The notes beneath the pieces were generated by a model. That model was not told where the DNA came from. It made no database searches and saw nothing but the letters and a program-made list of their open reading frames with translations. A DNA stretch of 63,982 bases, the filler included, from Candidatus Hydrogenedentota bacterium (GTDB lineage: Bacteria; JBFMHD01): the NCBI GenBank assembly GCA_040752395.1. It is 10 parts of 10 records of this genome, joined end to end, with 100 filler letters (N's around TTAATTAATTAA, not from the genome) between each part and the next. Parts side by side here need not be neighbours in the genome. Positions count along the whole stretch, not along the records: positions 56,441 to 61,402 come from JBFMHD010000207.1; 9 more parts are not named here. One strand, written 5' to 3'. Shown here in pieces: positions 473 through 61,502 of this stretch (the first letter of the stretch is position 1; every line of letters begins with the position of its first letter). Both the position numbers and the translations under genes were made by a program.

Positions 473-546
473 TGGGGTGTCGCCAAACTGGCAAGGCACC
501 GGCCTTTGGAGCCGGTATTATGGAGGTTCGACTCCTCCCACCCCAG
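473..546 (+). tRNA. tRNA-Gln(TTG)
   Basis: Acceptor TGGGGTG/CACCCCA, anticodon arm CCGGC-CTTTGGA-GCCGG, T loop GGTTCGACTCC; CCA not encoded. Confidence 0.95.
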
Positions 547-558
547 CTGTTTACAATC

Positions 559-699
559 GGAGAGTCAGGATAGTAGCGAAGTAAAGAATGGCTGTCGGCC
601 CTGCCGACCGAACAGACATTTTGCGCAAAAGCGGATAGCGAGGAACAGCGAACAGGATGTGAGCGAAAGCAAAATGTCGCGCAGGAAGCGAGACGAGCA
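559..699 (+). repeat. tRNA-linked structured element, copy 1 (degenerate)
   Basis: Core GACATTTTGCGCAAAAGCGGATAGCGAGG...GCAAAATGTC nearly identical to 57918-57982 and to the minus-strand copy at 55743-55805. Confidence 0.85.
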
Positions 700-724
700 T
701 TAAAAGAGATCTGTAAAAAATACT

Positions 725-753
725 TTGACACTGTATTGGTTAATGAGTAAAAT
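725..753 (+). promoter_or_regulatory. Sigma70-type promoter for the MNT-HEPN pair
   Basis: TTGACA-17 bp-TAAAAT directly upstream of the ORF at 762. Confidence 0.65.
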
Positions 754-761
754 GAAAAAGG

Positions 762-1067
762 ATGAAATATATGAGTAAAGAAGAGATAATAGAAAAATTA
801 AAAGAATCTAAAATTCATCTTAAAGATAAATTTCATATAAAAAAAATAGCATTATTTGGTTCATGCTTAAGGAATAAAGATAGTGGTACAAGCGATATCG
901 ACCTGCTAATTGAACTAGATGAAAATATATCAAATGTCTATGAACTAAAAAAAGAGTTAAGGTTATATCTTACAGAGATATTTAAAATGGATGTTGACTT
1001 GGCTCGTGAAAAATACCTTAAAAATTATGTTAAAAATGATATATTAACTCAGGCAATATATGTTTAA
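762..1067 (+). CDS. Minimal nucleotidyltransferase (MNT) antitoxin
   Basis: LFGS...SDIDLLIE motif, ~100 aa, overlaps the HEPN gene. Confidence 0.9.
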   Translation: MKYMSKEEIIEKLKESKIHLKDKFHIKKIALFGSCLRNKDSGTSDIDLLIELDENISNVYELKKELRLYLTEIFKMDVDLAREKYLKNYVKNDILTQAIYV

Positions 1068-1407
1068 AAAAGACAGGGGAAATATACTTGGCATCATTGA
1101 AGCAATTGATAAAATAACAAAATATACTGCTAATATATCAAAAGGTGAGGAACTATTTGCAAATTCTCTTATCTTTGATGCTGTATTAATGAATTTTATT
1201 GTAATAGGTGAAATGATAGACAGGATTTCAGAAGAATTTAAAAGTAATTATCCTGAGATAAAGTGGAAAGAAATAAAAAATTTTAGAAATATTATTGCTC
1301 ACGACTATTTCGGTATAGATGCTGATGAGGTTTTTGATATTATAATTAATTATATCCCCAATTTTAAAAAGGATATCTTAAAAATATTAAGCAATATTTT
1401 AGAGTAG
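1060..1407 (+). CDS. HEPN/DUF86 (HepT-like) RNase toxin
   Basis: RNIIAHDY = Rx4HxY motif; IGE and PEIKW typical of DUF86. Confidence 0.9.
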   Translation: MFKKDRGNILGIIEAIDKITKYTANISKGEELFANSLIFDAVLMNFIVIGEMIDRISEEFKSNYPEIKWKEIKNFRNIIAHDYFGIDADEVFDIIINYIPNFKKDILKILSNILE

Positions 1408-20268: not shown

Positions 20269-20368
20269 NNNNNNNNNNNNNNNNNNNNNNNNNNNNNNNN
20301 NNNNNNNNNNNNTTAATTAATTAANNNNNNNNNNNNNNNNNNNNNNNNNNNNNNNNNNNNNNNNNNNN
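20269..20368. other. Artificial contig linker (also 25482-25581, 30686-30785, 35890-35989, 41058-41157, 46182-46281, 51266-51365, 56341-56440, 61403-61502)
   Basis: N runs around TTAATTAATTAA (stops in all six frames), identical each time. Confidence 0.98.
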
Positions 20369-20503: not shown

Positions 20504-21904
20504 ATGTTAAAAAAATTATTAATAATTATCTTTATAGGAATTTTGTTTCCTGGTTTTATTTTTGCTCTAACACTTCAATATAATAATCCTCAGGCAAAAA
20601 AAGTATATGTTGCAGGCGATTGGAATAACTGGAGTCCGGACGCTGATTTGATGACAAAAAATAGCCAGGGGCTATGGGAGATAGATTTAGATTTAATGCC
20701 AGGAGAATACCAGTATAAATTTGTAGTTGATGGTGAATGGAAACAGGACCCGAGTAATCCTTTGAGTGCAGATGATGGTTTTGGTGGCAAAAACTCTGTA
20801 TTAAAAGTGGAGGGTAGTGATAGTAAAGAGAGTAGGTCTGCGGTTTCTACTTCAGGCACGACATTTAGATTTAAAGACGCCGAAGCCAAAACAGTTCATC
20901 TTGCAGGCGAGTTTAATAACTGGCTTGATAATGAACAGGGGAGAGTGAGGGGGAAGGAAGAATGGCTGATGAAGAAAGAGGGCGATGTATGGACAATAAC
21001 AGTGGATTTAAGGCCTGGTACATATAAATACAAATATGTAATCAATGGTGGCGAGACGTGGAAGAAGGACCCGAATGCGCCTGATTCAGGTGACGATAAT
21101 TCGCTTGTTACAGTTGGAGAGAAGAAAGGTACAATATCGACTCCACAAACAACAAAAAAGACTTTGTTTGAAGTAAAAGCATCAAACGCAACAAAAGTAA
21201 CATTAGCAGGTGAATTCAACAACTGGAATATGAATGAAATAGTAATGGAGAATGTTGAGGATGATGTATGGCGAAAAGAATTGGAGTTAAAACCCGGAAC
21301 ATATGAATATAAATTTATACAGGATGGTGATTGGGATATATTAAATAAAAGTAATAGAAAAATAACTGTAAAGCTTGAAACAGGAACCAGTGAAAAAACC
21401 GTATTTGAAGTCAAAGCACCTGGCGCTAAAAAGGTTACGCTCGCAGGTGAGTTCAATGACTGGAATACTGATGAATTAGTGCTTGAGAATGTAGGTGGCG
21501 ATATGTGGAGAATCGAGATTGAGCTGGAACCAGGGACATACAAATATAAGTTTTTACAGGATGGAGACTGGGATATACTAAATAAAGATGATCGTAGAAT
21601 TACTATTAGTGCTCAAACCCAAACCCAAACAAAAACTACTCCAGCCGCTAAAGGAATAACGATAACATATAATAACCCAATCGCAGATAAAGTATATATT
21701 GCGGGCGAGTTTAATAACTGGGACCCATTAAATGGTGAGATGACACAGGATGCTGATGGGAACTGGAGTATAGTTTTAGACCTGCCTCAGGGTAAATACC
21801 AGTATAAATTTGTAGTTGATGGTAAATGGATACAGGACCCGAAGTGCTCTGAGTCAGTTGATGATGGTTTTGGCGGCAAAAATTCAGTAATAATTATTGA
21901 GTAA
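20504..21904 (+). CDS. Secreted protein with five CBM48/AMPK-type glycogen-binding domains
   Basis: Signal peptide; five repeats of V.(V/L/I)AG(D/E)(W/F)N.W...W...L.PG.Y.YK(F/Y); no catalytic domain recognised. Confidence 0.85.
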   Translation: MLKKLLIIIFIGILFPGFIFALTLQYNNPQAKKVYVAGDWNNWSPDADLMTKNSQGLWEIDLDLMPGEYQYKFVVDGEWKQDPSNPLSADDGFGGKNSVLKVEGSDSKESRSAVSTSGTTFRFKDAEAKTVHLAGEFNNWLDNEQGRVRGKEEWLMKKEGDVWTITVDLRPGTYKYKYVINGGETWKKDPNAPDSGDDNSLVTVGEKKGTISTPQTTKKTLFEVKASNATKVTLAGEFNNWNMNEIVMENVEDDVWRKELELKPGTYEYKFIQDGDWDILNKSNRKITVKLETGTSEKTVFEVKAPGAKKVTLAGEFNDWNTDELVLENVGGDMWRIEIELEPGTYKYKFLQDGDWDILNKDDRRITISAQTQTQTKTTPAAKGITITYNNPIADKVYIAGEFNNWDPLNGEMTQDADGNWSIVLDLPQGKYQYKFVVDGKWIQDPKCSESVDDGFGGKNSVIIIE

Positions 21905-24991: not shown

Positions 24992-25584
24992 TTTTTCGCT
25001 TTTCTGCTATGCCTTTAAAGTGCTATAATTAAATTTCTATTACACAAATAAATATCTCGAACAACAGTCCACAAAAAACTACTTAAATATACGGATAATA
25101 ATTTTTTTCTTAATAAACCAGGACGATGGTTTTATATTAGGTCTATTTAATATTCCTGGCCATTCTACTATACCATACGGCGTTTCATAATAAAAGGCTG
25201 CTATAATTGGGCCCGGAACTTTTGTTAATTCTTGCATTGACCCGTAAATTTTTAATGTTGGATCAAAAAGGGAGCTGATAGAAAAATTGTGTTTATTATA
25301 AAAGGTGAAAAAGATATATTATATTTTACAAAATTTTACAAAAAATTTGAGGATGTAGGAAAACCATGTCAAGAAAACCTAAAGACTGGGGAAGAGAAGT
25401 TTCTAGAACACTCAAAAATATAAGAGATATTCCAGATAGCCTCTCTTCACCTAAGCTTGTAAGCACTATTATACACTATTGNNNNNNNNNNNNNNNNNNN
25501 NNNNNNNNNNNNNNNNNNNNNNNNNTTAATTAATTAANNNNNNNNNNNNNNNNNNNNNNNNNNNNNNNNNNNNNNNNNNNNTTA

Positions 25585-30685: not shown

Positions 30686-30785
30686 NNNNNNNNNNNNNNN
30701 NNNNNNNNNNNNNNNNNNNNNNNNNNNNNTTAATTAATTAANNNNNNNNNNNNNNNNNNNNNNNNNNNNNNNNNNNNNNNNNNNN

Positions 30786-35889: not shown

Positions 35890-35989
35890 NNNNNNNNNNN
35901 NNNNNNNNNNNNNNNNNNNNNNNNNNNNNNNNNTTAATTAATTAANNNNNNNNNNNNNNNNNNNNNNNNNNNNNNNNNNNNNNNNNNNN

Positions 35990-41057: not shown

Positions 41058-41168
41058 NNNNNNNNNNNNNNNNNNNNNNNNNNNNNNNNNNNNNNNNNNN
41101 NTTAATTAATTAANNNNNNNNNNNNNNNNNNNNNNNNNNNNNNNNNNNNNNNNNNNNAATAATATAAT

Positions 41169-46072: not shown

Positions 46073-46281
46073 GTAGTGTCAACCCACGGTTATGAGGTCT
46101 CTTTTAAAACCTCATTTTTTAAAGACGGGTCTTGTGACCCTCTTTACATTATATTGAAATTACAAAAAATAAAAAATGTAGNNNNNNNNNNNNNNNNNNN
46201 NNNNNNNNNNNNNNNNNNNNNNNNNTTAATTAATTAANNNNNNNNNNNNNNNNNNNNNNNNNNNNNNNNNNNNNNNNNNNN

Positions 46282-51265: not shown

Positions 51266-51392
51266 NNNNNNNNNNNNNNNNNNNNNNNNNNNNNNNNNNN
51301 NNNNNNNNNTTAATTAATTAANNNNNNNNNNNNNNNNNNNNNNNNNNNNNNNNNNNNNNNNNNNNAAGCTAAGGAGCAAGAAACAAAAAGAA

Positions 51393-52361
51393 TTATATTC
51401 TCAAATTTTTTAATACTTTTGGCTCATATTTATCCTGTATCTCCTTAATTATTTCACCATCAAGCACCCTCCTTAATTTTTTATACATCTCGGCTCTATT
51501 TTTGTTTTGCAAAAAATAGAAGATTAAAGATTTTACATAAGTTTCAAGATAGATAATAAATTTAAATATATTGTATTTTATCTTTCCAAAATATTTTTTA
51601 ACATAGATGAGTTCACTCAATCTTATATGTAAAAGTATCTCATCAGATACTTTACTTACAGATTTAGACCAGTGATGAATAATCTTCGTTTCGCTTGTAT
51701 AAAATATTTTCCAGCCCGATTCTATCAGTCTTCTCTGAAATTCCATTTCTTCAAAATAAAGAAAAAAATCAGGATCAAATCCTGATACCGAATTAAATGC
51801 CTCTCGTCTTATCATCATACAGGAACCACCTATCCATCCTACATATCTATCAGTCGAATATCTGTTATTTACATATTGTCTTAGAATTTTTGAGTTCTCA
51901 ATTTTGATTATTAAACTCTGGATATAAAACAATTTTTCCAGGATAAGATCAAAATAGTTTAAGAATCTCAATGAATAATTAGGCTGCTGGGTTTTATCTG
52001 GGTTAAGATATCTGCAACTAACAAGTCCTATGCTACCATCAGATTTAATTTTAGCCAGCAATACCGATAGAGTATTTCTTTCTAATACTACATCGCTATT
52101 TAATACAAGCACAAATTCCGAATCTGTTATCTCAAATATTTTATTAATCGCTTTTGCATATCCTATATTTTGGGGGCTATGATAGAATTCCGTTTCTTTA
52201 TAAAGTCTTTTAAATCTGTCTCGATTATCAGTCTCACTATTATCCCAGACAATGTTTCTTCCTGTAAAACCAGTTTCTTTTATACTATTTAAACAATCTA
52301 TCAATTCTTCGCCGGGATTATATGTAACAATTCCTATGGCAACTTCGTTTATTTTATTCAT
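51393..52361 (-). CDS. Glycosyltransferase family 2 (WbbL-like)
   Basis: [34 protein letters not shown]. Confidence 0.9.
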
Positions 52362-53494
52362 TTAAAAAATTTCATTACCCTGTTCCAGAAATCAGTGATA
52401 TTATTATAATTTTTTTTATTATCAGAGATTCGTTTAAATTCAGTTAATAATCTTTTCTGTTCATCGGATAATTTATTCGGGACTTCTATCTGAACCTCAA
52501 CGAGCTGGTCTCCGCTTGTGCCATAATCAAGTCTCTGGAATCCAAGTCCTCTTAATCTGAATATTTTACCATTCTGTGTGCCTGGCGGGATAACAAGTTT
52601 AGCTTTCCCTTTCATTGTTGGTACGTCTATCTCAGAGCCGAGTGTAAGCTCTGGAAAAGTCACAGGAACGACTACATAGATATCATCTTCATTACGTTTA
52701 AATATCTCATGCTCTAAAACGTGAATCACAATAAGTAAATCACCTGCTGATCCACCATTTATACCTGCTTCTCCCTCATTTCTTAATCTTAAAACAGAGC
52801 CTGTATCTACTCCTTTAGGTACCTTTACCTGAAGAACTTTGCTCTTTTTTTCTCTGCCTGAGCCATAACATATTTTACAGGGTCTCTCAAGTATCTCACC
52901 GTGACCATGACATTTAGGACAGGTCGTGCCTATGGAGAAAAACCCTCTGCTCATATATACCGTACCCTGTCCCCTACATTCAGGACATTGTTTTCTTCCA
53001 TAACCGGATTCAGAACCCGTTCCCTTACAGGAAGAACAGGTTTCAAGTCTTGGAACTCTAATACTTTTTTCAGTACCTTTATAAGCATCTTCAAAACTTA
53101 TTTCAATATCATATCTTAAATCAGACCCGCGTTGGCTACGTGTTCTCCTTGTGGTACCGGTTCTTGTCCTGCCAAATCCAAATAGCTCATCGAATATAGA
53201 GCCAAAAAAACTCTCACCGAATATATCGCTAAACTCACTAAAGATACTTGGGTCAAACCCTGTGAACCCGCCTTCAAAAGCCGCAGAACCAAATTTGTCA
53301 TACCTTGCCCGTTTTTCGTCATCAGCAAGAACAGCATAAGCCTCGCTTATCTCTTTAAATTTTTCTTCAGCCTCTTTATTACCTGGATTTTTGTCCGGGT
53401 GATATTTCATTGCGAGTTTTCTATATGCTTTCTTAATCTCGTCTTTAGGTGCATCTTTAGCTACACCTAAAATTTGATAATAATCTTTAGCCAC
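52358..53494 (-). CDS. dnaJ: Chaperone DnaJ
   Basis: J domain with HPD, G/F region, four CxxCxGxG repeats. Confidence 0.97.
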
Positions 53495-54062
53495 ATTCTT
53501 TTTCCTCGTTATTACTTTTCACATCTTCTATCCTGGCTCTTTGTTTTCTATTAATAATCACGCGTGCAGGTCTTATAACCCTGCTTTTGTACAGATACCC
53601 CTGTAAAAGAACCTTTAAACATATATTATCCTCTTTTGTTTCGTCGGTCTCAAAACCTAAAGCTTCATGAAATAGCGGGTCATACTCTTTATCAAGCGGA
53701 TTAATAATCTCAAGTCCTCTCTCTGTAAATACTTTTATAAGTTCATCAAAAATCAATAACAATCCTTTGATACCATTATCTTTTATGCCTTCGAGATTTA
53801 ATTTTGCAGTATTTACGCTGTCAAATATAGGTATCAAGGCTTTGACCAACGATGTTTCGATGTATTTTTCTTTTTCACTAAATTCTCTATCAAGTCTTTT
53901 TGTATAGTTCTGGAATTCAGCCTGTAATCTTATGTGCAGTTCTTTAAGCTCGTTATTCTCGTTCTGCATCTCTTCGATCAGCTTTTTCATATTCTCTAAT
54001 TCTTGTTTTAATTTCTCTTCCTCTGAAACCTCTTCTTTTATTTCTTCTTTTTCTTCTTTCAT
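53487..54062 (-). CDS. grpE: Nucleotide exchange factor GrpE
   Basis: [21 protein letters not shown]....RVIRPARV. Confidence 0.95.
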
Positions 54063-54138
54063 AATAAAACCACCTTTCCCAATTTTATAATATACTTATT
54101 TTTAAATCAAGATTTTCTAGTATTCGGGATTACATTTT

Positions 54139-55620
54139 CTATAATCTTAAGATATGCTTTAATAAATTTAGGTCATCCTTTCTAAATAAATTAAGTAACA
54201 TACCACCAAAAATAAGTAAAAATAAATATATTAAACCAATATAAATTATACTTATAGAGTTTTTTAAAAACAGAAAAATAAAAAAAAGAATAGAATTTAT
54301 AATAATAACTTTTAAAAAAACAGCTATCTCAAGAGTGATAAACTTGACTTTTTTAATGTAACTAAAAAATATCCCTGCATTGGCGATTAATTGAGATGTA
54401 GAGTATGCTATCGCGCAACCGGTATATGAGAAAAGCGGGATTAAAATAACATCTAAACCGATGTTGATTATAACAAGTAAAATGCACCAGCGTGCAATTA
54501 TATAATGTTCAGCTCTGCCAAACATAATCGTTGTTAAAGGTATCATCAAAGCATAAGGGATTAAGCCATACATAAAAGCACTAACACAGGTGGCAGATCT
54601 CAAGGCGAGTTCAAACCCTACCCATAACCTTAATATATTAACAGGATATATCATTATAAAAAGTAATACCGGTATCATAATAACACCAATAAATCTCGAA
54701 CCACTCTTTAGAAATCTTATTATAACATCGATTGAATTTTCTTTGTTCCAGCGTGATATCGCAGGTACGACAGCCGATGTAATACTCTTTAATATTGCAT
54801 ACGCTATCTGGATAGCTTTTCTACCAATTTCATAATAAGTTATATAAGCAAGATTTCCCGTAAAAAATTGAAGTAATATTTTATCAGTATAATCAGTTAT
54901 TATAGTAGATAAATTTATAACGAAAGAATTCAATCCATAAGTGTAAAGTTTTTTTATTAAGTTTATATCCACTTTATAAAAACCAAATTTGAATGCCGGT
55001 ATAATTTTTTTTATGGTTCTATAAGCAAGAAGTTTAAAACCAGCGGTTACAAGAATATACATCACCATTATTTCAATAAGCCCGAAACCAGAAAGAACCA
55101 TTCCCGCACATAACATAGTCTTAACCATTTCAGAAACAGCAGAAATCTTGAAAGCTTGACCCAATCTTTCAAGCCCGACTAATGCACCATCAAGCGGACT
55201 TAATACTATCTGTATAAAAAAAAGCAGTATCCCAAATCTCAATAATATCACTGATTGAGATATATATTCACTTTTTATATTAAGAAGATTAACAATCTCA
55301 TTTGAGAAAAGAACAAGGAAAAAACAAAAAGGTAAAATAATAAAAAACAGAACGATTATTGTTTGAGATACCATTTCTGAAATCTTTTGCGGAAATTCAG
55401 CTATATATTTTACAACAGCGCTATTAATACCGAACTCCAGCAAAGGTAGGTATCCAATAATACTGAATATTAAAGCCCATAATCCGAATTTTTCGTGGCC
55501 CATTGCTAAGACTATAACAGGGAAAAAGACAAAGCTAATGATTCTTGTTGAGAACTGAGCTATTGTATTATAAATAATATTTTTAAATACTGGAAATCTA
55601 TGTTCACTCGAACCCATCAC
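54139..55620 (-). CDS. Wzx-like oligosaccharide flippase
   Basis: KNIIYN, FGLWAL, many TM helices, TDKILL; start uncertain. Confidence 0.8.
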   Translation of the reverse strand: MMGSSEHRFPVFKNIIYNTIAQFSTRIISFVFFPVIVLAMGHEKFGLWALIFSIIGYLPLLEFGINSAVVKYIAEFPQKISEMVSQTIIVLFFIILPFCFFLVLFSNEIVNLLNIKSEYISQSVILLRFGILLFFIQIVLSPLDGALVGLERLGQAFKISAVSEMVKTMLCAGMVLSGFGLIEIMVMYILVTAGFKLLAYRTIKKIIPAFKFGFYKVDINLIKKLYTYGLNSFVINLSTIITDYTDKILLQFFTGNLAYITYYEIGRKAIQIAYAILKSITSAVVPAISRWNKENSIDVIIRFLKSGSRFIGVIMIPVLLFIMIYPVNILRLWVGFELALRSATCVSAFMYGLIPYALMIPLTTIMFGRAEHYIIARWCILLVIINIGLDVILIPLFSYTGCAIAYSTSQLIANAGIFFSYIKKVKFITLEIAVFLKVIIINSILFFIFLFLKNSISIIYIGLIYLFLLIFGGMLLNLFRKDDLNLLKHILRL

Positions 55621-55639
55621 GAGTTTTCCCTCGGCTCGC

Positions 55640-55830
55640 TCGGCGAAAAAATCCTGTTCAATTCCCTATTAGTTCCACTGGTAGCGCATAGGGGAATTGA
55701 CCTTCCGCTCATCTCGCTTCACGCTCGTCTCGCTCCAGGCACGGCATTTTGCTTCCGCTCACATCCTGTTCGCTCATCCTCGCTATCCGCTCGGCGCAAA
55801 ATGCCCGTTCAATTCCTAATCAGTTACAAA
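55640..55830 (-). repeat. tRNA-linked structured element downstream of tRNA-Glu (one full unit plus start of a second)
   Basis: 22-bp tRNA 3' end repeated at 55679-55700; antisense T-arm at 55807-55816 and 55656-55666; shared core. Confidence 0.88.
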
Positions 55831-55905
55831 TGGTAGCGCATAGGGGAATTGAACCCCTGTTTGCGGATTGAGAGCCCGCTGTCCTAACCGTTAGACGAAT
55901 GCGCC
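55831..55905 (-). tRNA. tRNA-Glu(CTC)
   Basis: GGCGCAT/ATGCGCT acceptor plus ACCA, anticodon loop CTCTCAA, T loop GGTTCAATTCC. Confidence 0.93.
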
Positions 55906-55911
55906 ACATAT

Positions 55912-56065
55912 TCTGGCTCCAGACTTCAGGTTCTTCAGGTTTCAGACTACAGACTACAGCCGGCTGGAGCCAAAAGCCCGGAGCCTGCTGAAAAGTCTTG
56001 AGTCCTGTTTTGACTCACGACTTGCGACTTGTGACTCACGACTCTTTTTATATCATCTCCTATGA
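55912..56065 (-). repeat. Modular repeat copy upstream of tRNA-Glu, no GGAG terminus
   Basis: Starts AGGAGATGATAT, GAGTC/GACTC hairpin, CAGCCGGCTG hairpin. Confidence 0.85.
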
Positions 56066-56579
56066 CAAGTTAAAAGTAAAGAAAGCGAAAATATACACTT
56101 CCTTGCCGTATCTTTCAATCTTTGTGCCTTTGCCTGCCTGCCGCGGCAAAGTGCGGCGCAGGCAGGTGCCTCTGTGCCTTTGAAAGTAAGAAGTAAGAAG
56201 TATCAGAAAATGCAGGATGCAAAAATAATCTTTGAACATCTGAACTCTTTTTATGGCCAGTTGAGGTAATCCGCGGATAGGATTTTTTTATATATTTCTA
56301 TTTTGTCTTTAATAAATGAGGTATCGATATTTAAATAATTNNNNNNNNNNNNNNNNNNNNNNNNNNNNNNNNNNNNNNNNNNNNTTAATTAATTAANNNN
56401 NNNNNNNNNNNNNNNNNNNNNNNNNNNNNNNNNNNNNNNNTTACGGTCTGTTTGTTTGTTTCGCACGCTATACGTGCTTTGTCAGGTGGCTTCAACTTTA
56501 CAGATTACTCCATAAGTTGCACCTCAAACTAAATCGTTTACAGACTTTTACGATTACTGACACCTTGCAGTCAGTTAGA

Positions 56580-56591
56580 TTTCAAAGAGCT
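56580..56591 (-). promoter_or_regulatory. boxA-like motif, possible rRNA operon leader
   Basis: GCTCTTTGAAA on the minus strand in a non-coding stretch running into a contig end. Confidence 0.3.
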
Positions 56592-56641
56592 TATCTTGGC
56601 ACGCTTCAATCTTTCAAAATTCTTCTTATCTTTTTCATACT

Positions 56642-56989
56642 TTAATCAGCCACTTGATGTTGTTCTATAAATTTTGTTATTTTATTTTTGTCTTCAGTTG
56701 CAACTTTTACAAATTGTACACCTATCCCATAAGGCAGAGAATCAATTCTTTTCCACCTAACTACACCGACTATCTTTAACTTATATCTATCTCCTGGCAA
56801 ATACAGATCGAATGTAACAAGTTCACCTACGGAGAATGGCACCATTGTCTCAATAAAAACGCCGCCTGCTGATATATTTTTTATTATTATTTCTTTGGTT
56901 ATCTGAGATTCCTGTGTGGTGGTTTTTTTTAGATTTGCAAGGAGGTGCGTCGGAATACGTTTAAATTTACGTTGATCTCTGCCATCCAT
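56642..56989 (-). CDS. PilZ domain protein
   Basis: QRKFKR and NISAGG motifs; GIGVQF. Confidence 0.9.
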   Translation of the reverse strand: MDGRDQRKFKRIPTHLLANLKKTTTQESQITKEIIIKNISAGGVFIETMVPFSVGELVTFDLYLPGDRYKLKIVGVVRWKRIDSLPYGIGVQFVKVATEDKNKITKFIEQHQVAD

Positions 56990-56995
56990 AAATTT

Positions 56996-57685
56996 TTATC
57001 TCACCCAGCTTTTAAGATTCTCCATATTTTTTATGTAAATATATCCCCTTTTATAATCGATCGCCTCATTCTTTTTAAAGTTTGAAATAAGTTTAGTAAC
57101 ACTTTCGCGTGCGGTACCAAGCATACCAGCGAGCTCATAATGGCTTATTTTCAAATTTATATAGTGTTCTCCATCTTTTTCAGCATAAAATTTTTTATAT
57201 AAAGAGATAAGTATAATAGCTAATCTACCTGCAAGGTCATAGAAAGTAAAACTTTTTATCTCTTCATTTGCTTCTCTTAGCCTTTTAGTTAGGGTCTTCA
57301 TTATTTTCAAAGCAATTTCAGAATCAGTTCTTACAAAGTCAAGAAAATTTTTACTTGTAAGCATAATGGCTTCACAATCTTCATACACGGTAGCGGTTGC
57401 TGATCTGTATTCTGTATCGAGTATAGCCATTTCTCCGAGAAAATCGCCCTCCTTTAAAATTCCTAAAATCTTAACCCGCCCCTTTTTATCGTTAATCGTT
57501 ATTTTTATTTTACCTTTAATTAAAAGATAAACTTCCTCACCATAAGAACCCTCTTCAAATATCTTATCACCCTTTTTAAAAGATACATTACTGCTTCTTT
57601 TTAGAATTTCTTTTAATTCTTTATCAGTCAATTCAGATAAAAATGGGATACTTTTTAAATATTTAATTTTTTCTAATATTGTCAT
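56996..57685 (-). CDS. Crp/Fnr family transcriptional regulator
   Basis: GDFLGEMA...RSATA cNMP site; ELAGMLGTARESVT HTH. Confidence 0.93.
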   Translation of the reverse strand: MTILEKIKYLKSIPFLSELTDKELKEILKRSSNVSFKKGDKIFEEGSYGEEVYLLIKGKIKITINDKKGRVKILGILKEGDFLGEMAILDTEYRSATATVYEDCEAIMLTSKNFLDFVRTDSEIALKIMKTLTKRLREANEEIKSFTFYDLAGRLAIILISLYKKFYAEKDGEHYINLKISHYELAGMLGTARESVTKLISNFKKNEAIDYKRGYIYIKNMENLKSWVR

Positions 57686-57814
57686 AAGTTTAACTCCAGA
57701 TACATCACTCTATGACTAAAATATAAAGGTATTTATCTTAAAAGGTCAAGAAAAAAGATTTGACAAAGTCGGGTTATTAAATTATTGGGGTTTTAATTCA
57801 TTTGAATTTTTTAT

Positions 57815-57888
57815 GCGCCTGTGGCTCAGTTGGATAGAGCAACGGATTTCTAATCCGTAGGTCGGGGGTTCGAATCCCTCCAGGCGCG
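57815..57888 (+). tRNA. tRNA-Arg(TCT)
   Basis: GCGCCTG/CAGGCGC acceptor, ACGGA-TTTCTAA-TCCGT anticodon arm, GGTTCGAATCC. Confidence 0.95.
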
Positions 57889-58042
57889 CATTGATAACAA
57901 CGTCAGGGATTCGAACAGACATTTTGCGCAAAAGCGGATAGCGAGGATGAGCGAACAGGAAGTGAGCGGAAGCAAAATGTCGTGCCTGAAGCGAAACGAG
58001 CGTGATGCGAGTTGATCGGAAGTTCGAATCCCTCCAGGCGCG
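57889..58042 (+). repeat. tRNA-linked structured element downstream of tRNA-Arg
   Basis: 21-bp tRNA 3' end repeated at 58022-58042; antisense T-arm AGGGATTCGAAC at 57905-57916; shared core. Confidence 0.9.
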
Positions 58043-58045
58043 TAC

Positions 58046-58147
58046 AAGTTAAAGAGTTCAGGTGTTCAGGAGTTCAAGAGTTAGAGTATTTAAAGATTCG
58101 TAACTCTTCAACTCCTGAACTCATCAACTCTTGAACTCTTCAAACTT
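58046..58147. repeat. Inverted octamer array (long imperfect hairpin)
   Basis: (GAGTTCAR)n followed by (YTGAACTC)n. Confidence 0.8.
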
Positions 58148-58153
58148 TTTTAT

Positions 58154-58228
58154 GGTGGATGTAGCTCAATCGGCTAGAGTACTGGACTGTGGCTCCAGTC
58201 GCTGCGGGTTCAAATCCCGTCATCCACC
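58154..58228 (+). tRNA. tRNA-His(GTG)
   Basis: G-1 plus GTGGATG/CATCCAC acceptor with C discriminator; CTGGA-CTGTGGC-TCCAG anticodon arm. Confidence 0.95.
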
Positions 58229-58234
58229 CTGATC

Positions 58235-59257
58235 TTATATCACCTTACTCACCCTCTGCCATTCTGCGATTCTTCTTTTTAAATGTAAATTATAATTTTC
58301 AAGTATACCCATCTTTTGGGCTGTCTCTATTAAGGATATTTTATTTATATCTTTATCCCTGTTGCTCCATCTTAATTCAAATAGCATCCTATCAAGATTA
58401 CGCTTCTTTTCCCGTATGCTCTCTATTCTCCCGTAACAAAATTTATCAAGAAACGCCCTCATAATAAGATTTTCTCTCTCGAGATAAGGCAAAATCTCTT
58501 CCAGCTCAATTATATCACTCTCTATCTTTTGTATATTTGCGCCTTCGTAACTCACAAGTCGTTTACTAAGCTCAACTATTTTTGAAGCAATTATTTTTAA
58601 ATATTCCATACCTTCAACTATAGATACAAAATCAACACTGTACTCAGGCATATAAGTACGCAAATCCAGAGGTTTATAACTAGGGAACCTTTTCTTCATA
58701 GATCTGTCAAATTCTTTATATATTCTCTGTTCTCTTGCGAATTGATACAGAACTTGATAATTATGCTCCATATTGTCTTTTCCCATTTTATCGAGGATTA
58801 CTCTTTTAGCCGTATCTTTATATTCAGCGAGTTTTCCAAAATTACCACCAAATTTAGGAGACTCAACTGTTATCAATTCATATAAAAATATCTTTATAAA
58901 TTCTTCTAATATCCATTCCTCATATTTAAGAACTCTATTATACGTTACTTCAAGTCTTGAAAACAAAATATTTACTAAATCCTGTAAGAAGCCGGGTGAT
59001 GATGAGATAATATTTTCAATTGGAGCCGGTACAACGAGCATTCTTGAAGTTCTTGCAACCTTAACAGTGGCTGTGCGTGGCATATTAAGTATTAGACCTA
59101 ACTCACCTACAAAAGTATCAAGTTCTTCTAATTCTGCTATTAACTGTTCGTTCTTATATACTTTCAATCTGCCTTCTTTTAAAATGTATGCGCAATCTGA
59201 TTCTTCACCTTCCATAAATAAAGTAGTGTTTTCTTCAAAAATTCTTTCTTGTAACAT
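58235..59257 (-). CDS. Cyclic-nucleotide-binding domain protein with unknown helical C-terminus
   Basis: LFMEGE, FVGELGL...PRTATV. Confidence 0.8.
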   Translation of the reverse strand: MLQERIFEENTTLFMEGEESDCAYILKEGRLKVYKNEQLIAELEELDTFVGELGLILNMPRTATVKVARTSRMLVVPAPIENIISSSPGFLQDLVNILFSRLEVTYNRVLKYEEWILEEFIKIFLYELITVESPKFGGNFGKLAEYKDTAKRVILDKMGKDNMEHNYQVLYQFAREQRIYKEFDRSMKKRFPSYKPLDLRTYMPEYSVDFVSIVEGMEYLKIIASKIVELSKRLVSYEGANIQKIESDIIELEEILPYLERENLIMRAFLDKFCYGRIESIREKKRNLDRMLFELRWSNRDKDINKISLIETAQKMGILENYNLHLKRRIAEWQRVSKVI

Positions 59258-59277
59258 AAAGTTATCCTTATAAAAAA

Positions 59278-59436
59278 CTCCTTCGAAAAACGCTGTAACT
59301 CTAATAATTCGGGGTACAGGCTACGGGCTACGGACTACAGCCGGCTGAAGCCCGAAGCCCGGAGCCTGAAGCCAACATATCATCTTTAGTTTTTTATACC
59401 TTGTGTAGAGCGCAAACCGCGCTCATGACTACTCCT
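59278..59436 (-). repeat. 154-bp unit of the RBS-ending repeat
   Basis: AGGAGT direct repeats at 59431-59436 and 59277-59282; near-identical to 45336-45494. Confidence 0.92.
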
Positions 59437-61297
59437 CCGAGTGCTCAAATATTCTATCCAATAAAGACGATTGAAAAGGTACGAATTCAACCATATCCTT
59501 ACCTCCTTTGAAAGTCACGTATTGATATTCCTGCTTTGATACAATGAAGGGTAACTTATTGATTTCCATATGTGCCCCTATATGTATTTTATCCATCGCA
59601 CTTATGCTTGCATCTTTTTCTTTGCCGATTTTCTCTTTAGATTGATATATTAAATTATGTAAATCTTTTTCTCTTTTTTTCAGTTCAATAAGCGATTTAT
59701 TAATTTCATCATATTCACGTTCAAACGTTTTATCCCATCGACTACTATTTTTTAGTTTCTCAAGTCTTGATAATCCTTCTTCCAATTTTTTAATCAAATC
59801 TATTGTTTCAATAAACTTTAATTGATAATTCTGAAGTTCATCAAAAAAAGATGGGTCTATACCTACAGCGATCTTTGTATGTGGTGAACCGGCTGCACCT
59901 ATCTCTTTTGAAATAACATGTTTCGCAGCGCGTATTACACCACCAATAATCTGACCCCGTTTCCCTGGTAGAACAACACTATATCCACTATCAATATGCG
60001 AATGAAAACACAACTCTGTTATAACAATATTCCTCTTAGCTGTAAGAATTGCCTGTTCAACAAATTTTGCAAAAATATCTCTCTCTGCTTGAACCACACC
60101 TTTTTCTTTACCTATTATACCGCCTATCACTTTCACATCTTGTCCTGCTTTCACAAAAGAGTTCCCTATATTTTTCTTTACTATTACATCACCTTTTGCT
60201 GTGACTCTAAAATTATCTTCTATATTTCCATTAACGATAACCGTACCTATAAAATCTATGTTACCCGTAGAATAATTCACATCCCCTTTTATGGTTAACA
60301 ATTCTTCAATTTCTATCTTTCCATTTTTAATAATCGGTTGGCCATCTTTATCTGCAATAAATTTATTAGTATTTTTATCAAAGACAATGCCATCGCCATG
60401 CTTTATTGGTATCTCTATCCCGTCTTTTGCAGGGAGCATTCGGCCATCAATTTTTTTCCCCGGGATACCTTTTTGTGCACTTATTTTTTCTGCAACAGGG
60501 TCTCCTTTTTTCACCACCTCGATAAGATTCATTTCCCGTAAATCGATTCTCCCAAATTTGTCCTGTCTAAATTTAGGTAATGTTTTATCGGACTCAAACC
60601 TTAACTCGATTTTTGCATTCACACCATTAATCGGCAGCGTTCCCTCTGCAATAAGTGTTCTTGTATTATAAACCTTCTCTTTTAATAAATCATCTATAAC
60701 ATCTTCTTTTATACCAAAAATTACACCTTCTCTGTGTAAAGTATTTATTATATCAACTTTTGTTAAATCTTTGCCAGCGCCCTCAGGCGGGATGACTGTT
60801 ATATAAGCCTGCATATGATCAGCTGATAACTCTATTTTAGCATAAGAATCAGCATCAGGTATAATCTTTCTTTTCCCCACCAGAACAGGTCTTTCAAGAT
60901 TAAATAATACAGCTTTTGATACCGCATCATTATCGACCTCTTCTACTTCTATCCCTTTCAGATAATGCAATATCGCCTGAGCATTTACTTCTTTGCCCAT
61001 GCCTTTTGCAGGATATACTGTCGCATAAATATTAACGCCTTCAAATTTTATATCAAAATATCCATCAAGATTCCTTGCTGTCTCTAAAGCTTTTGACACC
61101 CCTCGTAAATCATGAAGTTCTATCTCTTTCTCATATACAAGGATCTTCCAGCTCTTTTTAAAAAAGCCGAGAAACCCGTTTCTCCCACGTTCTATTATTT
61201 TATAATCAAGATATCTTGAGGCTATACCAAATTTTTCAGCCCCTTTTTTTAATGCCTCTTTTATGCTCTCTGCTTCAATTACTATTTCGCTACCCAA
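59429..61297 (-). CDS. FapA/DUF342 family protein with N-terminal Jag-like domain
   Basis: IEAESIKEAL...GFLG (Jag_N-like); GDVNYSTGNIDFIGTV, IIGG repeats. Confidence 0.85.
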   Translation of the reverse strand: MGSEIVIEAESIKEALKKGAEKFGIASRYLDYKIIERGRNGFLGFFKKSWKILVYEKEIELHDLRGVSKALETARNLDGYFDIKFEGVNIYATVYPAKGMGKEVNAQAILHYLKGIEVEEVDNDAVSKAVLFNLERPVLVGKRKIIPDADSYAKIELSADHMQAYITVIPPEGAGKDLTKVDIINTLHREGVIFGIKEDVIDDLLKEKVYNTRTLIAEGTLPINGVNAKIELRFESDKTLPKFRQDKFGRIDLREMNLIEVVKKGDPVAEKISAQKGIPGKKIDGRMLPAKDGIEIPIKHGDGIVFDKNTNKFIADKDGQPIIKNGKIEIEELLTIKGDVNYSTGNIDFIGTVIVNGNIEDNFRVTAKGDVIVKKNIGNSFVKAGQDVKVIGGIIGKEKGVVQAERDIFAKFVEQAILTAKRNIVITELCFHSHIDSGYSVVLPGKRGQIIGGVIRAAKHVISKEIGAAGSPHTKIAVGIDPSFFDELQNYQLKFIETIDLIKKLEEGLSRLEKLKNSSRWDKTFEREYDEINKSLIELKKREKDLHNLIYQSKEKIGKEKDASISAMDKIHIGAHMEINKLPFIVSKQEYQYVTFKGGKDMVEFVPFQSSLLDRIFEHSEE

Positions 61298-61308
61298 TTG
61301 GATAAATC

Positions 61309-61402
61309 CTCCTCTGAAAAACGCTGTAACTCTAATAATTCGGGGTACAGGCTACAGGCTACGGACTACAGCCGGCTGGAGCCAAAAGCCAAAAGCCTGC
61401 TG
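61309..61402 (-). repeat. RBS-ending modular repeat cut by contig end
   Basis: Ends TTTTTCAGAGGAGG before the TTG start of the FapA gene. Confidence 0.9.
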
Positions 61403-61502
61403 NNNNNNNNNNNNNNNNNNNNNNNNNNNNNNNNNNNNNNNNNNNNTTAATTAATTAANNNNNNNNNNNNNNNNNNNNNNNNNNNNNNNNNNNNNNNNNN
61501 NN

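Follow-up and report, generated by a model that had tools for sequence, protein, structure and literature searches.

A 154-bp stretch at the 3' end of a tRNA-Arg gene is, on balance, probably an intact unit of a family of protein-less, structured cassettes inserted site-specifically at the T-loop of tRNA genes. It lies in DNA of a Candidatus Hydrogenedentota bacterium; the whole stretch that we analyzed (63,982 nucleotides, called the window below) consists of MAG contigs (5-kb) joined by N44-TTAATTAATTAA-N44 linkers, and the Arg, Glu, and Gln loci described here are therefore on three different contigs. Besides the anatomy of this unit, we observed its membership in a wider family, an antisense arm that tracks the host tRNA, covarying helices in the core, a sharp left boundary of the insertion, and serial and partial units with turnover between related loci.

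A complete unit at tRNA-Arg and related loci in the window

The complete unit and its host tRNA gene comprise the following features.

57815 to 57888, plus strand: tRNA-Arg(TCT), host of the complete unit, without encoded CCA (ARAGORN; Rfam tRNA, 74.6 bits)
57868 to 57888, plus strand: first copy of the direct repeat (B1), 21 nt, from tRNA-Arg G53 (T-loop) to the discriminator (exact string present twice in the window)
57889 to 57904, plus strand: spacer or 3' trailer, 16 nt (read by eye)
57905 to 57916, plus strand: arm AGGGATTCGAAC, 12 nt, exact reverse complement of 57868-57879 (inverted match)
57917 to 58021, plus strand: core, 105 nt, 51% GC, 69% purine (covariance model R1, 85.5 bits over 57905-58033)
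58022 to 58042, plus strand: displaced tRNA-Arg 3' end, second copy of the direct repeat (B2), exact match to B1

The sequence-only reading had described this layout as a repeat, 16 nt, the reverse complement, a purine-rich core, and the repeat again, and every boundary that it gave was confirmed. The last 21 nt of tRNA-Arg (57868-57888), GTTCGAATCCCTCCAGGCGCG, recur exactly at 58022-58042 with no CCA after them, and the repeat grows to 27 nt once two mismatches are allowed (E 9e-6 within the window). The arm is antisense to tRNA positions 53-64, that is, to the T-loop plus part of the 3' strand of the T-stem. This succession of sense, antisense, and sense T-loop sequences had one match in the window, with 0.00 expected from 100 shuffles. 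The core stands out in composition (51% GC vs. 33.8% for the whole window) and contains a hairpin, P1, in which 57918-57927 pairs with 57972-57981; as modeled, it would form a three-way junction closed by a stem between the arm and the displaced copy. The spacer is probably carried by the element because it resembles the spacers of the Glu units (TGNTAAC-like; by eye).

Run with filters off, the R1 model gave four significant matches in the window, all of them 3' of tRNA genes and on the tRNA strand: one full copy at tRNA-Arg, one full and one truncated copy at tRNA-Glu, and a degenerate copy without the duplicate at tRNA-Gln. Three of the four tRNA genes in the window are thus occupied, and the fourth, tRNA-His, had no element. 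The sequence-only reading correctly described the core as common to the Glu and Gln loci; the Arg locus is 85% identical to the Glu locus over 141 nt (E 2e-36) and 91% identical to the Gln locus over 90 nt (E 9e-31).

55831 to 55905, minus strand: tRNA-Glu(CTC), CCA encoded, with its B1 (T55 to CCA, 22 nt) at 55831-55852 (ARAGORN; Rfam)
55807 to 55830, minus strand: Glu unit 1 spacer (13 nt, 55818-55830) and arm AGGAATTGAAC (55807-55817) (sequence reading)
55701 to 55806, minus strand: Glu unit 1 core (R1, 92.5 bits over 55691-55818)
55679 to 55700, minus strand: displaced tRNA-Glu 3' end (T55 to CCA), 22/22 identical to B1 (string match)
55621 to 55678, minus strand: Glu unit 2, truncated (R1, 22.1 bits, E 0.0017 over 55549-55667)
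473 to 546, plus strand: tRNA-Gln(TTG), host of degenerate units (ARAGORN; Rfam)
547 to 734, plus strand: Gln locus with spacer, arm remnant, deleted first core, CCGAAC (608-613), and second core (R1, 38.5 bits over 607-734)

At the Glu locus, the arm of unit 1 matches the T-arm of its own tRNA at 10 of 11 positions, and its P1 helix (55796-55805 with 55743-55752) carries a compensatory change from A-T to G-C relative to Arg and Gln. Behind it, unit 2 consists of an 11-nt spacer (55668-55678), an arm AGGGAATTGAAC (55656-55667), and about 35 nt of a diverged 5' part of the core, and it stops at the start codon of a flippase-like ORF (55620). Unit 2 appears to be the older of the two. A displaced copy identical at 22/22 positions, with a diverged and truncated unit behind it, fits a recent tRNA-adjacent insertion that pushed an older unit outward.

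The Gln locus is degenerate. P1 is retained in its second core (615-624 with 669-678), of the Gln-specific arm only the remnant GGAGAGTC (559-566) survives, and the tRNA-Gln 3' end has no second copy anywhere in the window. The claim that the core is constant while the flanks follow the adjacent tRNA holds in the window for Arg and Glu. An MNT/HepT toxin-antitoxin pair follows the Gln locus.

The unit gave no sign of encoding a protein. The purine-rich sense strand alone explains why every one of the three antisense frames is open, and we rejected coding potential on the grounds that the antisense ORF frames differ between Arg and both Glu and Gln and that the copies are separated by an indel. 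The ORFs of the unit had no Pfam match, and the 154-bp Arg unit contains no integrase, only ORFs that are artefacts of composition. An integrase gene was found neither near the three window loci nor among 50 metagenome loci (272 kb), and these 50 loci likewise yielded no recombinase common to their neighborhoods and no parent insertion sequence with the same ends. The early suggestion of a miniature element rather than a conventional integrase island accordingly stands; the long, ORF-bearing versions envisaged with it did not appear among the 50 loci.

Metagenome relatives, arm tracking, and core structure

Relatives were sought on metagenome contigs with an architecture pattern made up of a tRNA-like T-loop, an arm, and a second T-loop piece, which identified at least 120 loci. 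Thirty-nine of 130 matches (35 distinct) had the full series of tRNA, arm, core of about 100 nt, and displaced tRNA 3' end; selection was for a host tRNA, the absence of a convergent tRNA, and a direct repeat of 14 nt or more. Because the pattern itself demands T-loops and an arm, it cannot be concluded from this sample that cores are confined to tRNAs. The host tRNAs include Ser, Pro, Arg, Glu, Cys, Leu, Met, Gly, Trp, Ala, and Val, and a homologous core is present on at least nine tRNA species. Unit length ranges from 137 to 170 nt across the 35 elements, and the window cores cluster and align with the largest metagenome family (17 members). Elements were always oriented like the tRNA, and one copy lies within an rRNA operon, with a tRNA on one side and the 5S gene on the other. 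The family is widespread among environmental bacteria.

Close relatives of the window itself were scarce. Its LeuA had a single relative at 57% identity (111 candidate stretches), and a FapA-like neighbor had one at 53% with all others at or below 37%; the lineage of the window is therefore nearly absent from the collections. In 401 genomes from the phylum of the LeuA relative, which may differ from the phylum of the window, there was no match to the window core by blastn or to the architecture pattern (one match for a control pattern). A pattern of 21 conserved core bases had no match in genome, metagenome, and viral contig collections, and blastn of the Arg unit and of the unit at locus L030 found nothing in phages and plasmids. 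The locus was absent from 24 sequencing runs, in which the 0.04 of sampled words that were present were taken as the tRNA itself. Viral contigs had no match to the three-part pattern. A two-part pattern (T-arm plus antisense arm) gave 12 viral loci that we judged near chance, of which four matched on both strands (at least two of these four being convergent tRNA genes), with the other arms mostly mismatching their own tRNA. Seven viral loci with an 18-mer from the GC-rich cores were also set aside, none of them matching the covariance model. Against Rfam 15, the window matches that reached the gathering score were limited to tRNA, rRNA, and a single piece of a group II intron, and 16 metagenome loci gave nothing over the cores at E up to 0.1. 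We found no description of such elements in the titles and abstract openings returned by a full-text literature search.

We evaluated whether arms follow their host at the six positions left free by the search pattern. Across the 35 distinct elements, the arm matched its own tRNA at a mean of 3.77 of these positions, compared with 2.21 (sd 0.17) after shuffling, and none of 10,000 shuffles reached the observed value. The proposed match between antisense arm and host tRNA is thereby borne out statistically beyond the window.

The insertion boundary is sharp on one side only. In 23 of the 35 elements the repeat begins exactly at T55, and the remaining 12 have its left end at positions 51-54. Repeat length varies from 12 to 106 nt; the left end is fixed, whereas the right end is variable and runs beyond the tRNA into the trailer, arm, or core in 15/35. 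Since the copy lacks T54 in 23/35 elements, the arm fits the real tRNA better than it fits its supposed partner. GAAC stands at the end of the arm and GTTC at or near the start of the copy, and two helices are separated by a bubble. In GC-rich members the arm is also antisense to the acceptor 3' strand up to the discriminator, leaving CCA unpaired, whereas the window copies have no acceptor antisense and their arms pair with positions 53-64 only. The arm could equally be a retargeting device or the second strand of a folded recombination site, and it could equally be kept by selection for the closing stem instead of retargeting.

In 28 aligned sequences, 94.6% of cells were paired, compared with 76.9% after shuffling, and the covariation score was 0.402 (0.119 shuffled, with 0 of 500 shuffles as high; at most 0.069 with the helix partners slid). 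A 16-sequence alignment gave a similar covariation result. Single-sequence folding energies were no better than those of shuffles (z -0.15 to -1.8). Two asymmetries in the aligned sequences point to the sense strand as the strand that would fold: the non-Watson-Crick pairs in the core helices, read on that strand, are G.T in eight cases and A.C in one, and GAGCG is found in 15 of 25 family representatives, its reverse complement in none. The loop sequence is strongly conserved between the 33% GC genome and genomes of 66-76% GC, which could indicate an RNA function rather than a mobility function.

Comparison of related loci showed how units come and go. The orthologous loci L026, L127, and L109 have a unit at the same site and differ by unit-derived indels. 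In a conserved tRNA-Ser(tga)-Ser(gct)-Ser(gga) cluster, one position is filled in L088 and empty in L132, and another has a full unit in L132 and the trailer and arm alone in L088. The trailer, arm, and 5' part of the core also occur without a displaced copy at the Glu locus of the window and in L082, L111, L127, L132, and L088. Arrays hold one to three units, often with copies that are truncated, nested, or composite. Neither an excised form, nor a mobilizing enzyme, nor an exactly matched empty site in a close relative was observed. Presence, absence, and unit number thus vary between related loci, as expected of something mobile.

A cassette model and competing explanations

From these observations we infer mobility of the cassette as a discrete unit, together with an intermediate, an enzyme, and transcription. 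Insertion would most often take place between T54 and T55. The resulting gene would run from the tRNA 5' part through an intact 3' end, trailer, arm (antisense to 53-63), and core of about 100 nt to the displaced 3' end; as the insertion would supply an intact tRNA 3' end, the tRNA would stay whole and the old 3' end would become the downstream repeat. The arm would pair with this displaced copy and close the three-way-junction core, folding on the sense strand, and the inserted cassette would be read through with the tRNA operon. Having no encoded enzyme, the cassette must therefore be moved in trans. Among sub-mechanisms we tentatively favor one, itself less likely than not, in which it would travel as a small, single-stranded, self-folded molecule and enter by single strand exchange at the T54-T55 junction. 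The arm:copy stem would then mimic the target gene's double-stranded T-arm and acceptor portion, and strand exchange would proceed in the manner of integron attC cassettes or CTX-phi.

It is a rather speculative idea that the cassette is a naturally programmable insertion element, its target specified by arm and sense copy, with a transcript that mimics a tRNA acceptor stem. An arm of 11-20 nt and the sense copy would pair with both strands of the T-arm/acceptor region, so that a dozen base changes might be enough to aim a gene-less 150-nt molecule at any tRNA. An enzyme acting in trans, from the host or a mobile element, would give the chemistry only, and the transcript would borrow tRNA-processing enzymes. 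Several observations sit uneasily with the cassette model. A move to a new tRNA needs a change of both the carried 3' end and the arm, and near-identical cores on Arg, Glu, and Gln in one genome are awkward for any integrase-like model. Repeats that overrun the tRNA end must be accounted for as well, and units without a displaced copy must be explained as deletions.

An unlikely alternative is that the element is mainly a host-level RNA module, in which a structured RNA of roughly 130 nt would be transcribed together with the tRNA and its spread among tRNAs would be secondary. Pairing of the arm with the duplicated end, or for a short time with the T-arm of the tRNA itself, would give a processing stem or an acceptor-stem mimic, leading to excision by tRNA-processing enzymes or to modulated maturation of the upstream tRNA. 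The strong covariation of the core helices, the fold on the sense strand with its strand-asymmetric motifs, the conserved loops, the constant orientation with the tRNA, and the copy in the tRNA-5S interval all agree with an RNA of this kind. So does the position of tRNA-His, which begins 10 nt after the preceding T-run and thus lacks space for its own promoter. Scans for promoters and terminators around Arg-His and Glu gave nothing on the relevant strand, and on these grounds tRNA and element may be co-transcribed. Orthologous loci keep the unit, and the GC-rich arms antisense to the acceptor 3' strand leave CCA unpaired as it is in a tRNA. The window copies, however, lack this acceptor antisense, and with T54 missing from the copy in 23/35 elements the arm is better suited to the real tRNA. 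In L127, L109, and L057 the displaced copy decays at its 3' end while the core is retained, and the many truncated, nested, and composite copies are what one would expect of selfish DNA. A pure RNA function also leaves the matching of arm and copy to each new tRNA unexplained.

We consider it improbable that the units arose by an RNA route, in which a reverse transcriptase copies the transcript and switches to, or primes from, the abundant tRNA 3' part, and the hybrid cDNA recombines with the tRNA gene. Neurospora mitochondrial retroplasmids and retroviral tRNA primer sites offer parallels. The repeat does stop where the mature tRNA stops (at CCA in Glu and at the discriminator in Arg), and the arrays, which look like a full unit followed by part of another and have a constant start but a varying end, are what rolling or repeated copying would give. 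The window includes a group II intron fragment (Rfam), and a reverse transcriptase is for this reason probably present in the genome. Encoded CCA, however, is not enriched among host tRNAs (27/38, compared with 17/30 for the other tRNAs in the same loci), and in L082 and L114 the host tRNA lacks CCA although its neighbors encode it. The Arg copy is followed by no CCA, and the window arm complements positions 53-64 and not the 3'-terminal nucleotides that a primer site needs.

Remnants of tyrosine-integrase islands or prophages, that is, attL/attR scars in the T-loop with nearly all of the intervening DNA lost, are a highly improbable source, and we regard this explanation as already largely refuted. 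In topology the units do match an integrated island, the tRNA being regenerated and its 3' fragment displaced as a direct repeat; a toxin-antitoxin pair stands behind the Gln locus, and crossover in the T-loop is known for some integrases (PMC1762012). Independent deletions, however, would not give one unit length of 137-170 nt in 35 elements, nor would scars be expected to share a homologous core on at least nine tRNA species with covarying helices and a tRNA-tracking arm, and no integrase fragment was found at the window loci or the 50 metagenome loci. Chance similarity or misassembly of a fragmented MAG is already refuted, even though the contigs are 5-kb ones and repeats often break or misjoin assemblies, by the 0.00 matches expected in 100 shuffles, by the core at three loci on three contigs, and by homologous units in independent metagenome assemblies.

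Relation to known systems and significance

The proposed cassettes share several traits with tRNA-gene islands and prophages that use a T-loop crossover, such as mycobacteriophage Ms6 in tRNA-Ala and Islander-type islands (PMC1762012 and PMC4383910). In both, insertion lies within the tRNA gene, which is regenerated, one tRNA can receive several insertions in series, a direct repeat from the T-loop onward is made by the displaced 3' fragment (exact over 21 nt in Arg and 22 nt in Glu), and the crossover falls in a symmetric loop (the T-loop, at T55 in 23/35). Unlike these islands, the units measure 137-170 nt rather than kilobases, contain no integrase and no gene, place one core on many tRNA species, and add an inverted T-arm copy; their covarying core helices also point to a single-stranded fold.

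A second comparison is with ORF-less integron cassettes and with recombination sites that act as folded single strands. Integron attC sites have R''/L''...L'/R' boxes with RYYYAAC and GTTRRRY and fold as a single strand with an unpaired central spacer, and CTX-phi has a folded single-stranded attP that is used by XerCD. The units resemble both in being imperfect palindromes with two paired segments, an unpaired bubble, and a variable structured loop, in that one strand seems to matter and no enzyme is encoded, and in insertion beside a GTT triplet, here G53-T54-T55. Unlike in these systems, no integron integrase, attI platform, or dif-like site was seen near the loci. In contrast to attC, the stem is copied from the target tRNA instead of consisting of conserved R and L boxes, arrays have one to three units, and the target is a tRNA gene. 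The likeness is best taken as one of logic, by analogy.

MITEs, REP/REPIN sequences, and PATEs are miniature derivatives of insertion sequences, including IS200/IS605 elements moved by Y1 HUH enzymes; among these, IS608 picks its target by DNA-DNA pairing with a short guide beside a hairpin. Like them, the units are small, non-coding, hairpin-forming, and multi-copy, and would be mobilized in trans. Unlike them, the units have an inverted repeat that is derived from the target and changes with the host tRNA, and a duplication of 21-46 nt with a fixed left and a variable right end in place of a short fixed target-site duplication or none. CIMEs are att-flanked, integrase-less, kilobase-sized deletion derivatives of integrative conjugative elements. 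The flanking att-type repeats, the lack of an integrase, the dependence on an enzyme in trans, and the tandem accretion at a tRNA-type site would be common to both, but the units have no known parent and form a conserved structured module. The primer-binding site of a retroelement is the complement of about 18 3'-terminal tRNA nucleotides, including CCA; the window arms differ in pairing with positions 53-64 only, and the GC-rich complement stops at the discriminator.

In practice, the units give rise to pseudo-tRNA fragments and to repeats at which metagenome assemblies break, and island finders built on displaced tRNA fragments can be misled by them. If the core is a working RNA, it would represent a widespread, uncatalogued RNA class in tRNA and rRNA operons of mostly uncultured bacteria. 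If mobile, the units would rank with the smallest known elements of site-specific insertion, with tRNA-gene targeting written in a short nucleic-acid arm rather than in a protein. They would then make testable how integrative elements switch between tRNA targets, and could suggest compact, guide-defined insertion tools.

Units at the tRNA genes of the window

The sequence-only reading had described the tRNA-Arg 3' end as duplicated around a spacer, an antisense arm and a purine-rich core, and we recovered each of these parts. The spacer (or trailer), the arm antisense to the tRNA T-arm, the core and the displaced tRNA 3' end (the copy) are together called a unit here.

57815-57888, tRNA-Arg(TCT)
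57868-57888, first repeat copy, the last 21 nt of tRNA-Arg, from G53 (T-loop) to the discriminator
57889-57904, spacer, 16 nt
57905-57916, arm AGGGATTCGAAC, 12 nt, exact reverse complement of 57868-57879
57917-58021, Arg core, 105 nt
58022-58042, second repeat copy, exact, 21 nt

The Arg core has a GC content of 51% (33.8% for the window), is 69% purine and contains six AGCG motifs. The sense, antisense and sense pattern of T-loop segments had one match in the window against an expectation of 0.00 from 100 shuffles. Between the Arg unit and tRNA-His, 58045-58139 contains a long imperfect hairpin and, after it, a T-run; the hairpin consists of GAGTTCA-like repeats of 7-8 nt and draws spurious microRNA matches only. 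tRNA-His begins 10 nt past this stretch.

R1, a covariance model built from the element family, was searched against the whole window with filters off and gave four matches at E < 0.01:

55691-55818, minus strand, Glu unit 1, 92.5 bits
57905-58033, Arg unit, 85.5 bits
607-734, Gln unit, 38.5 bits
55549-55667, minus strand, Glu unit 2, 22.1 bits

The earlier placing of the element downstream of tRNAs held for all four of these matches, each of which lies directly 3' of a tRNA and on the same strand. Three of the four tRNAs in the window are occupied, and tRNA-His is empty.

At the Glu locus, tRNA-Glu with its encoded CCA is followed by a 13-nt spacer, the arm AGGAATTGAAC, the core and a displaced copy running from T55 to CCA (22/22 identical). 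Beyond it, an 11-nt spacer leads to a second arm AGGGAATTGAAC and to about 35 nt from the 5' part of another, diverged core; this outer remnant stops at the start codon of the flippase gene. The perfect copy, together with the score of the outer unit (22 versus 92 bits), fits a recent insertion beside the tRNA, which would give a newer unit adjoining tRNA-Glu and an older, decaying unit pushed outward. In Glu, A-T has also become G-C in the first core hairpin, a compensatory change. At the degenerate Gln locus there remain an arm remnant GGAGAGTC and two cores, the first of them internally deleted, and the tRNA-Gln 3' end has no copy there. The proposal that arm and flanks follow the adjacent tRNA stood at the Arg and Glu loci, where the arms are Arg-specific and Glu-specific, respectively.

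Truncation of outer units at downstream start codons was seen at 55621-55655 (minus strand) and, after tRNA-Ser(gga), in two metagenome loci (L132 and L136). The purine-rich core start there forms a Shine-Dalgarno-like GAGG/GGAGG 8-12 nt upstream of the start codon of the flippase (55620) or of a lipoprotein-like ORF (L132 and L136). Separately, 24 nt at 20843-20866 (minus strand) match a piece of the core (AATGTCGTGCCTGAAG...) with 92% identity (E 0.001 for a search inside the window). This stretch sits in a coding region with no tRNA near, R1 gives only 8.5 bits nearby, and it is too short to be called a core copy.

The MAG contigs in the window, most of them about 5 kb, are joined by N44-TTAATTAATTAA-N44 linkers, so apparent neighbourhood across the linkers is artificial. 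Because they lie on separate contigs, the Gln, Glu and Arg loci are physically unlinked.

1-20268, contig of the Gln locus
51366-56340, contig of the Glu locus
56441-61402, contig of the Arg locus
20269-20368, 25482-25581, 30686-30785, 35890-35989, 41058-41157, linkers
46182-46281, 51266-51365, 56341-56440, 61403-61502, linkers

The organism has almost no relatives in the sequence collections searched, and the locus was absent from all sequencing runs compared. The best identity of its LeuA to any relative there was 57%, and its FapA-like protein had one relative at 53% and others at 37% or less. Genes bordering the loci are ordinary in kind: Crp-like and PilZ proteins upstream of tRNA-Arg, a cNMP-binding protein and the FapA-like protein downstream of tRNA-His, a polysaccharide flippase, GrpE and DnaJ beyond the Glu units and, directly beyond the Gln units (762-1407, plus strand), an MNT/HepT toxin-antitoxin pair (NTP_transf_2 nucleotidyltransferase and HepT-like RNase). 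No tRNA-Gln fragment closing an island was found at this pair. A group II intron D1-D4 piece (RF02003, 67.9 bits; 56436-56569, minus strand) lies at the contig end after the PilZ gene, with the remainder of the intron and any reverse transcriptase beyond that end.

Relatives, arm specificity and turnover

No match to a 21-base pattern common to the three window cores occurred in genome_contigs, metagenome_contigs or viral_contigs. A pattern for the architecture (GTTCRAWTCC, 22-38 nt, GGAWTYGAAC, 86-116 nt, TCRAWTCC) matched nothing in viral contigs and none of 401 genomes of one phylum (a control pattern gave one match there), and found at least 120 loci in metagenome contigs. We sorted 130 of the metagenome matches by tRNA context. 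In 51 of those listed, a host tRNA was present, the arm lay outside any convergent tRNA and the third part was distinct from any second tRNA. A convergent tRNA was involved in 25 (19 without a called host tRNA, 6 with one), a real second tRNA and no convergent one ended 10 (8 with a called host, 2 without), and 44 had no called tRNA at all, many of them at contig ends or part of other repeats. For 39 of these 51 listed matches (35 distinct sequences), the first and third parts could be lengthened into a direct repeat, 14 nt or longer, running from the T-loop towards the tRNA end. Host tRNAs among them were Ser (four anticodons), Pro, Arg (three), Glu (two), Cys, Leu (two), Met, Gly (three), Trp, Ala and Val. 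The metagenome search thus shows this architecture to be widespread.

One locus without a called tRNA (L064) is a tandem satellite of 54-nt period whose unit contains GGATTCGAAC-TA-GTTCGAATCC, a palindrome of the T-loop in antisense and then sense orientation. On two related phage contigs (L006 and L017), tRNA-Ser is followed by 18 nt, AGGAATTGAAC-AGAG and an ORF that, by impression from its sequence, looks Cys-rich and possibly HNH-like; the arm mismatches the tRNA-Ser T-loop there.

Arm specificity was evaluated at the six positions left free by the search pattern (57, 59 and 63-66) in the 35 distinct elements. Arms matched their own tRNA at a mean of 3.77 positions, compared with 2.21 (sd 0.17) after shuffling, and none of 10000 shuffles was as high; positions 57 and 59 agreed in 33 of 35 elements. 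This confirmed, in metagenome elements, the predicted tracking of the host tRNA by the arm. In GC-rich members the trailer also bears a segment antisense to the acceptor 3' strand; it extends as far as the discriminator and is parted from the T-arm antisense by a 2-5-nt bubble at the acceptor/T-stem junction. This acceptor antisense is absent from the window copies.

The left end of the repeat is sharp, falling at T55 in 23 of the 35 elements, where T54 is replaced by G (16) or C (7); the others begin at T54 (2), G53 (4), G52 (3) or G51 (3). The window copies begin at G53 (Arg) and T55 (Glu). The right end is variable: it lies inside the tRNA 3' part in 20/35 and 4-22 nt into the trailer in 11/35, and in 4/35 it falls in the arm or core and a second partial unit comes after it. 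Units measure 137-170 nt.

Related loci recorded turnover. Three orthologous tRNA-Ser(cga) loci (L026, L127 and L109), 86% identical on the tRNA side including the unit, all carry a full unit in the same position. A further partial unit and a third tRNA-end copy are present in L026. L127, whose downstream gene is 94% identical to that of L026, has an orphan arm and core start beside that gene. We also compared a conserved tRNA-Ser(tga)-Ser(gct)-Ser(gga) cluster across loci. Ser(tga) is followed by an 18-nt space in L132 and a full unit in L088. Behind Ser(gct) there is a full unit in L132 and trailer and arm alone in L088; in L136 this position is taken by an insert of unrelated sequence, about 115-150 nt long, whose homologue lies behind Ser(tga) in L042. 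The stretch following Ser(gga) in L088 (1911-2290) is a composite, about 390 nt long, in which three modules resembling P1, the first core hairpin, share a single arm-to-copy frame; this suggests that the P1 module can multiply or recombine alone. The L042/L136 inserts start directly after CCA (CCCTYCTTCGC...), have no tRNA-end copy and sit where related loci bear structured units.

Core family and fold

When cores were clustered by blastn, the three from the window joined the largest family, with 17 metagenome members, and the window units align with that family over the whole unit length. R1 gave 34 matches (E up to 0.001) on 100 loci: 26 with a same-strand tRNA 8-23 nt upstream, three second units, three at contig starts and two without a called tRNA. 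Since the pattern that selected these loci depends on a tRNA, only the window search is an unbiased test of tRNA linkage. One family member adjoins a gene whose closest named relatives are from Deltaproteobacteria or Deferrimicrobium-type MAGs (87-89% identity), which extends the family's range from 33% to about 70% GC genomes.

Units matched no Rfam family (window and 16 related loci) and nothing in the phage and plasmid collections, and 50 element-bearing loci (272 kb) had no common protein family besides ordinary neighbours. A protein-coding element was rejected because ORF frames differ among copies, an indel separates copies and no Pfam match was obtained; all three antisense frames stay open solely through the lack of pyrimidine-rich stop complements on the sense strand.

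The consensus fold comprises a closing stem that pairs the arm with the copy, a short extension using the CGG directly before the copy, and two hairpin domains. The first of these, P1, contains two inner hairpins, and its purine-rich loops are conserved. The P1 loop consensus is roughly CGC-CGA-N-CG-NNN-AG-N-GAGGA-NN-AGC. Across 28 sequences, in an alignment fitted to the model and thus favouring structure, 94.6% of cells paired versus 76.9% when shuffled, and the covariation score was 0.402 versus 0.119 (0/500 shuffles), with slid partners at 0.069 or less. A MAFFT alignment of 16 sequences gave 93.2% versus 78.8% and 0.352 versus 0.109, respectively. Folding energies of single sequences were not significant. 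On the sense strand, non-Watson-Crick pairs in the core helices are G.T eight times and A.C once, and GAGCG occurs in 15/25 family representatives and its reverse complement in 0/25. From these two biases, the folding strand is the one carrying the tRNA, as RNA or single-stranded DNA.

Mechanism and standing among known elements

On balance, we lean towards site-specific integration in the T-loop as the topology, given the intact gene, the displaced 3' fragment, the serial units and the sharp T54|T55 boundary. A classic double-stranded attP circle is an unlikely intermediate because the unit is short, there is no integrase, covarying helices form on one strand and one core family serves many tRNAs. 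The bending persistence length of DNA is about as long as one unit. Single-stranded, self-folded attachment sites are used by integron attC cassettes and by CTX-phi, in its attP hairpin. The element resembles them in layout, with two segments that pair, a bubble in the middle and a structured loop that varies. The arm could likewise serve as the second strand of the attachment site within a single-stranded, self-folded intermediate, or alternatively as a guide pairing with the target; the folded single-strand version is a tentative proposal. A mobile cassette explains poorly how arm and carried tRNA end would change jointly on retargeting, and why units of trailer, arm and core start recur without a displaced copy.

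A role at the RNA level could instead be the main reason that the element exists, and would be compatible with mobility. The strand bias, the loops conserved across very different genomes and the position within tRNA and rRNA operons speak for such a role, which we nonetheless consider rather unlikely as the main reason. That the copies arose through RNA is less probable again: arrays of one unit plus a fraction fit this origin, but the CCA data do not, as CCA was encoded in 27/38 host tRNAs versus 17/30 other tRNAs in the same loci, and so was not commoner at hosts, and two host tRNAs lack it though neighbouring tRNAs encode it. The family evidence excludes both plain scars, a very improbable source, and chance, to which we give practically no weight.

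Among known systems, the nearest are tRNA islands with T-loop crossover, folded sites of the attC/CTX-phi type, MITE/REP/PATE hairpin elements and CIMEs. The element shares the att-repeat and T-loop features of tRNA-integrated islands but fails their integrase and size features, and it differs from a MITE in having neither a parent's inverted repeats nor a fixed short duplication. No description of such units emerged from the literature searched, and supplementary island lists might include such mini 'islands'. The unit is a genuine feature and represents a variant among tRNA-targeted insertion elements, with a targeting principle that is possibly novel.
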